From a virus, in IMG/VR virus record IMGVR_UViG_3300003690_003472, positions 121,565 through 185,564 of that record: DNA of 64,000 nt, one strand, 5' to 3'. Numbering within the stretch: position 1 is the first letter of the stretch; each line of letters begins with the position of its first letter. The notes beneath the pieces were generated by a model, which worked only from the letters and a program-made list of their open reading frames with translations, did no database searches and was not told where the DNA came from. The translations under genes and the position numbers were made by a program. Positions 6,658 to 11,897 of this stretch are shown here, piece by piece.

Positions 6658-7062
6658 ATGGCAGTCTATATTCCAAGTAACAAAACAAAAAAGTTTCTAG
6701 ATTTAGCTGGCAATGTTGCCAATCAGGGCGGTTATCCACGTTTTAAACATGGAGCAGCCTTAGTTAAAGGATCATCTGTTATCAACACTGCATATAATAA
6801 AAATGGTTATTGCAGTTTTGGTGCACGATTCTACGAAGGCAACCCAAACAACGTCACACTTCACGCAGAACTGGCCTCAATTCTAAATATTGAACGCGAA
6901 AACACTGAAAACTCAGTAGTATATGTAGTTCGTGTGAATACCGCTGGCGAATACCGTCTAAGTAAACCATGCAAAATGTGCGAAAGTGCCATGAGATTTT
7001 GTGGTATCAAGAAAGTGATTTATTCAACAAACGATGGTTTTGAAGTAATGAGGTTAAAATGA
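6658..7062 (+). CDS. Cytidine/deoxycytidylate deaminase-family protein
   Basis: HAE and PCKMC zinc motifs. Confidence 0.85.
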   Translation: MAVYIPSNKTKKFLDLAGNVANQGGYPRFKHGAALVKGSSVINTAYNKNGYCSFGARFYEGNPNNVTLHAELASILNIERENTENSVVYVVRVNTAGEYRLSKPCKMCESAMRFCGIKKVIYSTNDGFEVMRLK

Positions 7063-8012
7063 AAAGAGTAATGATTATTGATGCTCTCAATCAATTTTTG
7101 AGAGCGTATATTGTAAACCCAACTTTGTCTCCAAATGGAAATCCAATTGGCGGCACAGTTGGTTTTCTTAAAATTTTACAGAAACTTTGTCGAGAAGTTA
7201 AACCTGATAGAATTGTTATTTGTTGGGATGGTCAAGGGGGCAGCAGAAAGCGCAAACTTGTAAATAAAAACTACAAGGAAGGCCGCAAGCCCATTCGCTT
7301 AAATCGCGATATTAAAAATCTTACAGAAGATCAGGAGCTTCAAAATAAAGCTTGGCAACAATTACAATTAATTAAGTACTTGAATAACTTTCCGATTACT
7401 CAATTGATGTTTGATGAAGTAGAAGCAGATGATGTTATTTCTTTCGTTGCACAAATGCCATATTTTTCTGGTTGGCAGAAAATAATTGTTTCAAGCGATA
7501 AAGATTTTTTTCAATTACTCGATGATGAAACTATTATTTATCGTCCAACTCAGCATGAAGTACTAAACAAAAACATGATTGTAGAAAAGTTTGGGATTCA
7601 TCCAACCAATTTCGCATTGGCACGTGCAATAGTCGGAGATAAAAGCGACAATCTCGAAGGCGTTAAAGGCGTTGGCTTACCAACGGTCGCAAATCGTCTT
7701 CCTTTCTTATCAGAAGAAAAATCTTATACAATTCAAGAAGTTAAAGAATTCTGCGAAAGTGCCAATTCACCCTTGAAAGCTTATCAAAGCATTATAGAAA
7801 ACCAAAAAGTAATTAAAGAAAACTATAAATTAATGCAACTATATAGTCCTAGCATTTCAATACAAAATAAACAAAAAATCAAATATATTGTTGAAGAAAC
7901 TGAGTTAACATTTAACAAAACTTCTACAGATGGCATGATGCTAGAAGATGGAATTGGAAAAACTAGTTGGCTAGATTTATATATAGCTTTTAAAAAGATT
8001 GCAGCAAAATAA
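7059..8012 (+). CDS. 5'-3' exonuclease / RNase H (PolI N-terminal, T4 rnh-like)
   Basis: MIIDALN, CWDG, YKEGR, EADDVI, SSDKDFFQL, GDKSDNLEGVKGVG. Confidence 0.92.
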   Translation: MKRVMIIDALNQFLRAYIVNPTLSPNGNPIGGTVGFLKILQKLCREVKPDRIVICWDGQGGSRKRKLVNKNYKEGRKPIRLNRDIKNLTEDQELQNKAWQQLQLIKYLNNFPITQLMFDEVEADDVISFVAQMPYFSGWQKIIVSSDKDFFQLLDDETIIYRPTQHEVLNKNMIVEKFGIHPTNFALARAIVGDKSDNLEGVKGVGLPTVANRLPFLSEEKSYTIQEVKEFCESANSPLKAYQSIIENQKVIKENYKLMQLYSPSISIQNKQKIKYIVEETELTFNKTSTDGMMLEDGIGKTSWLDLYIAFKKIAAK

Positions 8013-8086: not shown

Positions 8087-8881
8087 ATGAAAGAATTAGA
8101 TATTTCTAGATTAGAAGGCAAAAAACTATTTGTTGCAACACCAATGTATGGTAATCAATGCAATGGAGGATATATGCAATCTTGCATGCGTTTACAAAAA
8201 ATGTGTTTTGAATTAAACGTTCCAATAGAACTTTATATTGTTTTTAATGAAAGTTTAGTAACACGCGCAAGAAATATATGTGTACATGAATTTTTAAAAA
8301 CAGACTACACACATATGATGTTTATTGATTCTGATATTGTTTTTGATCCCATTGATGCATTAAAACTATTGGCATATGATCGTGACATTATATGCGGTGC
8401 TTACTCTAAAAAAACAATCAGATGGGACAGGGCACTACAAGCTCTTTCTACCGGTGATTTAAATCTTGGTTCTAGTGCTTCTGAAGTAGAGAGCTTTACT
8501 GGAGATTTTATTTTTGATCCTTCTAATAGGGGCAGAATGTCTCTTTATAATCCAATAGAGGTCACAGATACAGGAACTGGTTTTATGATGATTAGAAGAG
8601 ACTGTTTTGAAAAGTTCGAAAAGGCCTATCCTGAATTAAAATATATTTCCGACTCATCAGGAGATAATGAAGTATATTATAAAAAAGAAATGGTGGCCTA
8701 TTTTGATACTGTGATTGATGCTGATTCAAAACGATATCTCTCAGAAGATTACATGTTTTGTAGATATGCAAAAAAAATAGGATTAAAAGTATGGCTATGT
8801 CCATGGGTAAAACTACAACACATTGGAAACTATACGTACAAAGGAAATTTTCTTTCTACAATAAAGCTACTTACGAGCTAG
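8087..8881 (+). CDS. GT-A fold glycosyltransferase-like protein
   Basis: FVATPMY, SLVTRARN, FIDSD (DxD), GTGFMMI, LSEDYMFC. Confidence 0.8.
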   Translation: MKELDISRLEGKKLFVATPMYGNQCNGGYMQSCMRLQKMCFELNVPIELYIVFNESLVTRARNICVHEFLKTDYTHMMFIDSDIVFDPIDALKLLAYDRDIICGAYSKKTIRWDRALQALSTGDLNLGSSASEVESFTGDFIFDPSNRGRMSLYNPIEVTDTGTGFMMIRRDCFEKFEKAYPELKYISDSSGDNEVYYKKEMVAYFDTVIDADSKRYLSEDYMFCRYAKKIGLKVWLCPWVKLQHIGNYTYKGNFLSTIKLLTS

Positions 8882-9125: not shown

Positions 9126-9367
9126 TGATGAGAATATTTTTAATTTTATTGTTTTTAACGGGATGTACTGTACACATTGAGGAAGAACATGTTCTTTGTG
9201 GATACTATGAAACGCCTTATTATGAAACGCCCTATGCTTGTGATCACCAATGTTGTGCTTGGCATGTTGATGATATCTATTTTTACAGCGAGTGTGCTGA
9301 AATTTGGTGTTATAATGAATATGCCTGCGCATGGCAACTTTATGATTATTCTTGTTATCCAATTTAA
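9125..9367 (+). CDS. Small Cys-rich putative lipoprotein
   Basis: Signal peptide with lipobox FLTGC; several further Cys. Confidence 0.6.
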   Translation: MMRIFLILLFLTGCTVHIEEEHVLCGYYETPYYETPYACDHQCCAWHVDDIYFYSECAEIWCYNEYACAWQLYDYSCYPI

Positions 9368-9412
9368 GGATTGACATATGTTATCATTGGTGATATAGTG
9401 TATAGAGTATTT

Positions 9413-9497
9413 GGCCGAATGGCGGAATTGGTAGACGCAACGGACTTAAAATCCGTTATCCGTAACGGGTGTGGGGGTTCAAGTCCCTCTTCGGCTA
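9413..9497 (+). tRNA. tRNA-Leu(UAA)
   Basis: Cloverleaf: GGCCGAA/TTCGGCT, anticodon arm ACGGA-CTTAAAA-TCCGT, long variable arm, GGGGG-TTCAAGT-CCCTC; CCA not encoded. Confidence 0.95.
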
Positions 9498-9507
9498 CAT
9501 AAAATAT

Positions 9508-9700
9508 GCCCGGGTAGCTCAGTCTGGTTAAGAGCGCTATCCAGTAGGACACTAAGGTCTGCAAGCGCATGACAAACACGGGAGTGATCATCTCGCTGCA
9601 GCTTGATTGATCCTAGCCGAAGTTAAAACACTGCAAGGGTTTTGAGCAGTGGATCTACGTTACGAGATGGAGGTCGGTAGTTCAAATCTATCCCTGGGTA
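9508..9700 (+). tRNA. tRNA-like gene, Val(UAC) if the 117-nt insert (9543-9659) in the anticodon loop is removed
   Basis: Acceptor GCCCGGG/CCTGGGT, D-arm GCTC/GAGC, anticodon stem CTATC/GATGG, AGGTC variable loop, T-arm GGTAG-TTCAAAT-CTATC. Confidence 0.75.
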
Positions 9701-9718
9701 CTAAAATGTGTGAGGACA

Positions 9719-10420
9719 ATGGAAAATAATATATACCTATTTGATGTTGATGGAACGCTAACATCAGCAAGACAAAAAATGACTGATGAATTTTGTTCCT
9801 TTTTTAAGGAATGGATTAAAGATAAAAAAGTTTACTTCGTTTCTGGTAGTGATTATGAAAAACTTCAAGAACAAGTACCAAAAAACATTTTAGAATCTGT
9901 TGCTGGAGTTTTTGATTGTATGGGAAGTTCTTTTTATAATAATGGTAAAAATATATTTAAACGCACTTTCAAGCCCACTGAAGATCTTTTGTACTTTTTA
10001 ATTGAATGTTTAGCTAAGTCGCCTTATTATATTAGAACAGGCAATCACATAGAAAAAAGAATAGGAATGATCAATTTTTCTATAGTGGGTCGAAACGCTT
10101 CTTTAATCGAAAGAAGGCACTATTTTTCAACGGATCGCTTATCTAAAGAGCGAGAAAAAATAGCCGCCCAAATTAATGAAAATTTTGAAGGAATTTCTGC
10201 GTCTGTTGGTGGAGAGATAAGCATTGATATATATCCAACTGGATGGGACAAATCACAAATACTAAAAGAATTACCAAAAGGAAACTATTTTTTCTTTGGA
10301 GATCGAACACTTCCAGGCGGTAATGATTTTTCTTTAGCAAAAGCCTTGACGGATGCTGGTCATATAGTGTATGATATATCTGATTATAAAGAAACATGGA
10401 AAATTATTGCAAATCGGTGA
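9719..10420 (+). CDS. HAD-IIB phosphomannomutase-like protein (eukaryotic PMM type)
   Basis: DVDGTL, VSGSD, EKRIGMINFS, GGEISID, FFGD..PGGND. Confidence 0.85.
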   Translation: MENNIYLFDVDGTLTSARQKMTDEFCSFFKEWIKDKKVYFVSGSDYEKLQEQVPKNILESVAGVFDCMGSSFYNNGKNIFKRTFKPTEDLLYFLIECLAKSPYYIRTGNHIEKRIGMINFSIVGRNASLIERRHYFSTDRLSKEREKIAAQINENFEGISASVGGEISIDIYPTGWDKSQILKELPKGNYFFFGDRTLPGGNDFSLAKALTDAGHIVYDISDYKETWKIIANR

Positions 10421-11106: not shown

Positions 11107-11427
11107 ATGAACATCACAATAAAAGCAATTAAAAAAATACAAGAAATGGCCACTAAACAAAATTTAACAAACTATGGTCTACGAATTATGGTAGTGGGCG
11201 GCGGTTGTTCCGGTTTTAGTTATAATCTAGACTTTGATGACACTAGGCAACCCAACGACTTTGTTTTAGAAGAAGATGGACTCAATATTTTTGTTGATCC
11301 TATGAGTTTTCAATATCTTGATGGTACAAAAATTGATTATGTCGAGTCTTTTATGGATACTGGGTTTCATTTTGAGAACCCTAACGCCACAACCACTTGT
11401 GGTTGCGGCTCCTCTTTTGCTATATAA
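11107..11427 (+). CDS. iscA: A-type Fe-S carrier (IscA/ErpA/HesB)
   Basis: GGGCSGFSY and CGCGSSF motifs. Confidence 0.92.
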   Translation: MNITIKAIKKIQEMATKQNLTNYGLRIMVVGGGCSGFSYNLDFDDTRQPNDFVLEEDGLNIFVDPMSFQYLDGTKIDYVESFMDTGFHFENPNATTTCGCGSSFAI

Positions 11428-11732: not shown

Positions 11733-11805
11733 ACTCTCGTAGCTCAGTTGGTAGAGCAAGCGGCTCATAACCGCCCGGTCGTAGGTTCAAGTCCTACCGG
11801 GAGTA
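11733..11805 (+). tRNA. tRNA with CAU anticodon, probably Ile2 (lysidine type)
   Basis: Cloverleaf; body GCGGCTCATAACCGCCCGGTCGTAGG resembles bacterial tRNA-Ile2 more than Met. Confidence 0.85.
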
Positions 11806-11810
11806 CTTAT

Positions 11811-11882
11811 TGCGGGTTAGAGTAGTGGTTACTCACAAGTTTCATAAGCTTGTTTAGGTGGGTTCGATTCCCACACCCGCGA
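11811..11882 (+). tRNA. tRNA-Met(CAU)
   Basis: TGCGGGT/ACCCGCG acceptor, CAAGT-TTCATAA-GCTTG anticodon arm, GTGGG-TTCGATT-CCCAC. Confidence 0.85.
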
Positions 11883-11897
11883 CTTTAAAAGGACTAA

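Follow-up and report, generated by a model that had tools for sequence, protein, structure and literature searches.

What becomes of a tRNA gene whose anticodon loop is interrupted by more than a hundred nucleotides of structured RNA: is the interruption removed to give a functional tRNA, and by what means, or do tRNA and insert serve together as one RNA? We address this question for a locus in the IMG/VR virus record IMGVR_UViG_3300003690_003472, of which the end was studied (positions 121,565 to 185,564 of the 185.6-kb record; this stretch of 64,000 nucleotides is referred to as the window, and its coordinates are used below). Positions 9508-9700 contain a complete tRNA-Val(UAC) cloverleaf, which is split after position 32 by a 117-nt insert, exactly as a first-pass annotation of this DNA had claimed. 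The 5′ half of the tRNA (9508-9542) comprises the acceptor 5′ strand, U8-A9, the D arm, G26, the anticodon-stem 5′ strand (9537-9541) and C32 at 9542. The 3′ half (9660-9700) comprises U33 to A38 (UUACGA), the anticodon-stem 3′ strand, a variable loop of 5 nt, the T arm, the acceptor 3′ strand and A73. Between them lies the insert, or candidate intron (9543-9659), which is structured and foreign to the tRNA. All of these parts, like the elements of the insert described below, are on the plus strand.

The split gene is missed both by ARAGORN in its default bacterial mode and by the tRNA model of Rfam. When 9543-9659 is deleted in silico, ARAGORN calls tRNA-Val(tac), the identity that the first-pass annotation had predicted for the gene after removal of the insert. 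Run with the -i option, the same program reports a tRNA-Lys(ttt) with an intron given as 35,98 at the split gene, which is an artefact because ARAGORN assumes introns at 37/38. Phage tRNAs are undercounted by standard tRNA finders, as the split tRNA-Val shows.

The gene lies where it had originally been placed, 9 nt behind an intact tRNA-Leu(UAA) gene (9413-9498, plus strand) and downstream of a predicted sigma-70-like promoter (9371-9399, plus strand; TTGACA, 17 nt, and TG-TATAGT with an extended -10), which matches the consensus at 11 of 12 positions and precedes the tRNA-Leu/split tRNA-Val pair. A tRNA-Leu gene is also found directly upstream in the relatives L003, L204/L235 and L250, and it occurs within the same locus in several other members of the family described below. 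Other neighbours of the split gene encode a eukaryotic-type phosphomannomutase-like HAD protein (9731-10420), an IscA-like Fe-S assembly protein (11107-11427), a dCMP deaminase (6658-7062) and a 5′-3′ exonuclease (7059-8012). Two tandem tRNA genes with anticodon CAU (11733-11806 and 11811-11883) are located just 5′ of a gene for a DnaB-like helicase; one of them may be an initiator or lysidine-type Ile tRNA.

Misassembly is excluded, and the assembly at this locus is sound. In public run X1, a 212-nt contig joins tRNA-Leu to the 5′ half and the insert with zero differences, a contig of another study (X4) covers 9509-9694 with three differences, and a third study holds a more distant copy of the insert, which is present on DNA contigs from three other studies. 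No joint skipping the insert, i.e. no insert-free DNA form, was found in the public DNA runs checked.

The insert belongs to a family of 20 distinct homologues on marine and vent phage contigs, all at the same place in a tRNA-Val gene. The first relative, L003, was reached through the neighbouring phosphomannomutase-like gene (70% protein identity) and has the same arrangement. Motif scans of IMG/VR with both insert ends, of IMG/VR with only the 3′ end and T loop, and of metagenomes led to 18 distinct sequences; an extra scan, anchored only on the 5′ exon and on insert bases 1-6, added L319 and L326, which score 87.8 and 71.6 bits, respectively, with the structural model R1 (see below). The constancy of motifs among members is partly imposed by the search patterns used to collect them. 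The AGUAGGA and AAAC motifs were not required in the scan with the 3′ end and T loop, the 3′ motif was not required in the 5′-anchored scan, and the terminal YG was never required; members collected without requiring the 5′ or the 3′ motif carry that motif nonetheless. The inserts are 109-140 nt long and the phages that carry them 95-284 kb in size; each of the six records examined for copy number, namely the window's own and five others, has a single copy of the element.

Among 185,579 prokaryotic genomes scanned there was one true match, on a 10-kb contig binned with a Flavobacteriales metagenome-assembled genome (MAG); this restricts the element to a group of uncultured phages from marine and hydrothermal-vent environments. 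The copy in question (L298, 5780-5917, on a contig of 10.5 kb from a vent sample) is identical to the L259 element from a metagenome. Its place in this bin is either an artefact of binning or slight evidence on the host, too weak for a host to be named. A blastn search of 9300-9800 against cultured phages gave matches of tRNA-Leu type only, and the closest cultured-phage helicase is at most 40% identical. Literature searches found no description specific to this insert family.

Other interrupted or unusual tRNA genes were encountered on the way. In L322 (4364-4480), L323 (minus strand, about 8440-8620), L321 and L325, other phage tRNA genes have AGTAGG after the 5′ exon; their inserts are different and shorter (about 25-80 nt), and model R1 recognises none of them. 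L322 has two short stretches in common with the family and, judged from these, might be a deletion derivative. In L163 (about 2100-2330), and likewise in L172 and L182, T-arm-like hairpins and tRNA fragments are densely packed, and the run in L163 is possibly an unusual tRNA array.

Comparison of the homologues defines seven helices in the insert by covariation: a nested series Pa-Pb-Pc-Pd-Pe, a pseudoknot that joins the Pe loop to a bulge separating Pc from Pb, and an independent hairpin, Pg. These were obtained from a manual structural alignment in which each sequence was parsed into segments, with a script checking that segment lengths sum to the sequence length. In this alignment 500 of 516 cells are canonical, compared with 9-75% per helix when strands are slid by 1-3 nt, and with 81% (maximum 87%) when partners are shuffled among sequences. 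A MAFFT alignment and the nested structure served to build model R1, against which every sequence was then realigned. The resulting alignment, which leans toward the proposed structure because it is fitted to that structure, is 91.7% paired and has 12 pairs changed on both sides, against 1-5 with strands slid, a result matched by none of 500 shuffles. RNAalifold applied to the plain MAFFT alignment returns only 8 pairs, because the helices are misaligned there. The folding energy of the single sequence is unremarkable (z = -1.08); structural support comes from the comparison of homologues.

From its 5′ end, the insert opens with J0 (9543-9550), the constant AGUAGGA plus one variable nucleotide; AGUAGGA is present in every one of the 20 members, four lineages of which were collected by scans that did not demand it. 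Bases 9544-9548 can pair with 9654-9658 to form a terminal helix, P0. This is the GTAGG/TCTAC pairing of the first-pass annotation, and it fares only partly well: its pairs are 100% compatible across homologues and hardly vary. P0 is accordingly compatible with the data and not proven by covariation, because variation is confined to G-C/G-U at the first pair and L326, which has U112A in its 3′ tail, breaks the last pair. Pa (9551-9553 with 9621-9623) occurs in nine distinct versions and is 91% canonical versus 19-48% when slid. Pb (9557-9560 with 9614-9617), with seven versions that include compensatory changes, is weak in the window and good in relatives. In Pc (9562-9566 with 9601-9605) the second pair is A-U in 10 sequences and G-C in 8, as is the third pair of Pd (9567-9570 with 9596-9599). 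Pd has a single mismatch in the window, 9570/9596, which is repaired in variant contigs from other samples, where 9570 T>C occurs together with 9596 C>G.

The arm is capped by the Pe hairpin (9579-9595; stem 9579-9582 with 9592-9595), whose second pair becomes A-U in L326. Within its 9-nt loop, 9586-9590 pair with 9608-9612 to form the pseudoknot, which has 11 complementary versions and is 94% canonical versus 19-54% slid. Some subfamilies carry optional extra hairpins, either in the Pd-Pc interval on the 3′ side or in the Pd-Pe interval on the 5′ side. The 3′ strand of Pa is followed by J10 (9624-9628), which holds a constant AAA, and then by Pg (9629-9651; stem 9629-9634 with 9646-9651), which occurs in eight versions, is 100% canonical and has 4-7 bp among members; in L319 the base of the Pg stem changes from CAC:GUG to CGU:ACG. 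The 3′ tail GAUCUACG (9652-9659) contributes the 3′ strand of P0 and a constant terminal G, with YG constant.

Pg corresponds to the CACTGC/GCAGTG pairing noted originally, which the homologues support. They do not support four other early proposals, namely a CACT/AGTG pairing of the two insert ends, TGCAAGCG/CGCTGCA, a CAC-GGGA-GTG hairpin with a GNRA loop, and GATCC/GGATC, since the letters involved are used by Pc, Pd, Pe and the pseudoknot. The broader view of the insert as an unclassified structured element is borne out: covariation indicates that it is under selection for its own fold, conserved, single-copy and inherited with the tRNA, and the lack of conservation or covariation expected of a decayed insertion is not what the homologues show.

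Constant nucleotides in the insert are AGUAGGA at the 5′ end, AAA (mostly GAAA) between Pa and Pg, and GGA(U/A)CUAYG at the 3′ end, and they surround both exon junctions. In the predicted fold, P0 would converge with Pa and Pg on a three-way junction at which these nucleotides lie, and the exon junctions (C32|A1 and G117|U33) would face each other at the foot of P0, across an apposition of A1 and G117. In most of class A (defined below) the start of the 3′ exon, UUACG, repeats the end of the insert, CUAYG; therefore the GUAG of the 5′ motif could pair with either.

The tRNA body is itself under constraint. Joined, the two halves make a cloverleaf whose pairing across 18 aligned sequences is 92.9%. 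Both partners have changed in 11 of its pairs (2-5 in controls with slid partners), and four of the five anticodon-stem pairs covary across the insert. The anticodon is NAC (UAC, CAC or GAC) in all 18. In E. coli, A35 and C36 are the anticodon bases by which valyl-tRNA synthetase (ValRS) identifies tRNA-Val. Stems, a 7-nt loop, U33, a purine at 37, A35 and C36 are all found after excision in the window and in the other ten class A members tested. No second tRNA-Val was found in the whole of the window's own record or in the loci fetched around other members. The other tRNAs of the record and of member loci read A-ending codons (UUA, AGA, AUA, AAA and GGA, with anticodons Leu UAA, Arg UCU, Ile UAU, Lys UUU and Gly UCC), in addition to CAU. 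In the window's own phage, GUA accounts for 31% of Val codons and UUA for 39% of Leu codons; tRNA-Val(UAC) therefore fits the tRNA set of the phage. The split tRNA has G37, which is unusual for Val. A search of IMG/VR for an uninterrupted phage tRNA-Val with a CUUACGA loop found none, save one chance match inside a coding region, and G37 therefore occurs only with the insert.

Some members depart from the standard tRNA form. L257 (5455-5644), L259 (1077-1286) and L296 (3393-3602) have in common a T stem with two mismatches, with an intact insert in all three, and in L257 and L259 pair 29-41 is a purine-purine mismatch as well. In L319 (9648-9830) the T loop is TTAAAGT, in which A replaces the universal C56, and the D loop is without the GG pair; together these may represent a compensated change at the tRNA elbow.

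The members fall into two classes by the boundaries of the insert. Class A comprises 12, including the window; its members have a single exon base of the loop (C32) ahead of the insert and six (YYACGA) behind. When the insert is excised at AGUAGGA...CUAYG, all 11 class A members tested yield a tRNA-Val that ARAGORN recognises, with 7 nt in the anticodon loop. Class B comprises the remaining eight (L003, L130, L204, L235, L218, L228, L293 and L319); here the 5′ exon ends at position 31 and only 4-5 nt lie between the insert and the 3′ stem strand. Class A boundaries applied to seven class B members leave 4-5 nt between the stem strands, not 7, and in L204 and L235 the outcome resembles an Arg(ACG) loop closed by a 4-bp stem. 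In class B a Val loop is obtained only with an ad hoc shift of the 3′ boundary by 1-3 nt that differs by lineage, and three of the shifted loops have G at position 33. No single pair of boundaries gives a canonical loop in both classes. The tRNA body of class B is intact and its insert conserved, with compensatory changes both in the acceptor stem (L218 versus L228) and in the insert, and inserts of two subtypes share the same class B exons (L204 and L319). L003 carries ten extra bases (GTTTATATAA; 2695-2704) between the 5′ exon and AGUAGGA, as well as a C31-A39 mismatch.

Against this background, known classes of RNA were considered. Searches of the window and six relatives against Rfam 15, at gathering and at permissive thresholds (up to E ≤ 10), matched the insert to no family; weak scores, such as those for YrlA (17-34 bits versus a threshold of 69), come from the tRNA parts. 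A bulge-helix-bulge motif, with two 3-nt bulges and a 4-bp helix, is not conserved on inspection of the alignment. A lone pairing of this kind between exon and insert, of exon AUCC with GGAU, is present in the window and lost in relatives with differing exons. Cores of the hammerhead, HDV-like, twister and hairpin ribozymes, and a P1/P10-type guide in contiguous register, were rejected by reasoning. Because the insert fits no known family of introns or other RNAs, its removal or use probably follows a route undescribed for bacteria and their viruses.

Our preferred reading, at a probability of about one half, is that the insert is an intron of a previously undescribed structural class, located between positions 32 and 33 of a functional tRNA-Val(UAC) gene. 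Removal of the insert to give tRNA-Val is probable. The precursor would be transcribed together with tRNA-Leu from the promoter at 9371-9399, and excision of the insert and joining of the halves would yield a tRNA reading GUA, a codon heavily used by the phage. The RNA itself could catalyse the reaction, with the constant junction as active site and the pseudoknotted arm as scaffold. The GUAG of the 5′ motif might act as a switch, pairing with either the 3′ end of the insert (CUAY) or the start of the 3′ exon (UUAC), and could so align the exons.

Catalysis by the RNA is, overall, a tentative proposal, and one that we purely infer, because no hallmark of a known self-splicing class is present. 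If the insert is an intron, RNA catalysis nevertheless seems somewhat more likely than any single protein route, because the compact constant junction touches both reactive phosphates, the rest appears scaffold-like and the phage records searched contain no recognisable splicing enzymes; catalysis by host proteins is the main alternative within this reading. A shade more speculative is the proposal in its fullest form, in which the insert would be the founding member of a new autocatalytic intron class and, at 109-140 nt, the smallest natural self-splicing RNA, with the AGUAGGA/GAAA/GGAUCUAYG junction as active site and a chemistry unlike that of group I and group II introns.

The explanation that competes best with an intron is an unspliced chimeric RNA, in which the structured domain would be functional as an aptamer, decoy, inhibitor or ribozyme acting elsewhere, and the tRNA halves would be its scaffold, recruiting end-processing, giving stability and perhaps being recognised by ValRS through A35 and C36. 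We consider it doubtful and still worth serious attention. The loops of class B and the T-stem mismatches of L257, L259 and L296 keep it alive: class B retains tRNA stems and insert under compensatory evolution, though excision at common boundaries cannot give it a normal loop, and the other three tolerate a mismatched T stem. The conserved AC and purine on the 3′ side could be a ValRS identity element, and bacteriophage T4 offers a precedent in RNAC and RNAD, stable small RNAs from a tRNA cluster (PMC3014915). A scaffold does not, however, account for the constancy of class A, where all 11 members tested (of 12 known) keep exactly 1 + 6 nt around the insert and so yield a canonical C-U-NAC-G-A loop; nor does it need a covarying 5-bp anticodon stem, or an anticodon that is always that of Val in phages whose other tRNAs fit codon supply. 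A shield or decoy and a tRNA-scaffolded non-coding RNA had been named from the outset, among three alternatives left unranked, and owe their standing to class B.

The third of those alternatives, removal by a nuclease/ligase pair, survives in part. Endonucleases of host or phage would cut at the base of P0, and an RNA ligase would reseal the nicked anticodon loop; tRNA end-processing enzymes, for example, might read P0 stacked on Pg as a minihelix resembling acceptor and T arm, with G117 as 'discriminator'. P0 and Pg indeed share a continuous 3′ strand, like acceptor and T stems, followed by a single unpaired G, and the constant junction could equally be a protein-binding site. Nonetheless we regard this explanation as distinctly unlikely. 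In element-bearing phage records, RtcB (PF01139) and Rnl2-type ligase were found in none of six and EndA (PF01974) in none of five, with positive controls for RtcB and EndA, and two of the records searched are rated 100% complete; host enzymes are possible. A search of the window's own record for Rnl1 (PF09511) carries no weight here, as its control matched nowhere. To our knowledge, bacteria lack EndA. P0 and Pg together span 9 to 12 bp, which suits a ruler-like mechanism poorly, the loops of Pg are not T-loop-like, and the insert obtains no score from the Rfam tRNA model. Cuts by RNase P at A1|G2 and by RNase Z after G117 were considered and rejected, as an 8-nt loop would result.

A miniaturised or degenerate group I intron is very improbable. 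All bacterial-type tRNA introns known to us so far are group I ribozymes, and the site in the anticodon loop is as in those introns; the last base of the insert is G in 20 of 20 members, like the terminal omega-G, which confirms and extends a feature first noted in the window alone and which the pattern scans did not impose; and the 5′ motif could be a short guide for the 3′ exon. Against this, 109-140 nt falls well short of the smallest known group I intron, of about 200 nt, and the Rfam group I model matches neither the window region (E ≤ 10) nor any of six relatives (E ≤ 5). The core topology is also different, with nested Pa-Pe, a loop-to-bulge pseudoknot and a separate Pg in place of a P3/P7 pseudoknot, a P4-P6 domain and P8. 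The last exon base is C throughout class A, instead of the U of the U-G pair, and U only in class B. The early judgement that the insert is neither a group I intron nor of the bulge-helix-bulge type agrees with the Rfam searches, the topology and the alignment.

Equally improbable are a decayed insertion or dead pseudogene, which is contradicted by compensatory changes throughout insert and tRNA, and a tmRNA-like chimera encoding a degradation tag, for which one frame of the window insert (9559-9606) ends in an ssrA-tag-like HLAAA-stop, a frame absent from 17 of 17 homologues, among which indels are not multiples of three. The chimera is also at odds with the presence of a D arm and an anticodon stem, and ARAGORN finds a separate tmRNA gene in the phage genome, outside the window (G000:C1:8839-9249). 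Relatives also contain tmRNA genes (L004, 459-767; L006, 725-1033; L032, 459-767); the tags encoded by the phage and these relatives are ANDNVEFDYALAA and ANNNVEFDSVALAA.

If the insert is spliced, it would reveal self-splicing RNA of a third kind or else a tRNA splicing route in bacteria that relies on proteins, neither of which has been described. If it is not, these abundant marine and vent phages would carry a structured RNA naturally scaffolded by a tRNA, which would be new as well. The element, about 110 nt long and with helices defined by twenty natural variants, lends itself by its small size to direct biochemical and structural study.

Among known systems, group I introns occupy the anticodon loops of bacterial tRNAs such as cyanobacterial tRNA-Leu UAA, tRNA-fMet and Azoarcus tRNA-Ile. 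Like these, the insert is a structured RNA in the anticodon loop that has a constant terminal G and needs no intron-encoded protein. It differs in being about half their size, in its position at 32/33, where group I introns lie 3′ of position 33, in its nested arm with a loop-to-bulge pseudoknot, and in having neither a U-G at the 5′ junction nor an Rfam match. Archaeal tRNA introns occur at non-canonical positions too, the anticodon loop included. The bulge-helix-bulge introns of archaea and eukaryotes, which are cut by EndA and joined by RtcB, resemble the insert in having their junctions opposite each other at a helix end; the insert is without conserved paired 3-nt bulges 4 bp apart, EndA and RtcB were not found in the phage records searched, and the hosts are bacteria. 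With small self-cleaving ribozymes (twister, pistol, hatchet, HDV-like and hairpin) the insert shares its size range, a compact pseudoknotted fold and the clustering of constant nucleotides at a junction near the reactive phosphates; in contrast to them, it has no Rfam match and would need two reacting sites followed by ligation.

Two phage systems also bear comparison, here by description only. The tRNAs of Lak megaphages contain conserved 'enigmatic' introns, which were tested against Rfam for classification; according to that study phage tRNA introns were previously unreported, and one Lak intron may encode a tRNA within itself (Devoto et al., 2019; PMC6784885). These are, like the insert, conserved in phage tRNA and unclassified by Rfam, and differ in that they belong to gut megaphages and to other tRNAs (Thr, Tyr and others), with no structure or family defined (PMC6784885). 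The T4 RNAs C and D, whose role is unknown, are structured non-tRNA RNAs within a phage tRNA cluster and are processed with the cluster (PMC3014915). They are separate genes and not tRNA inserts; by analogy, they are the nearest known counterpart for a structured RNA that would be carried, unspliced, on a tRNA scaffold.
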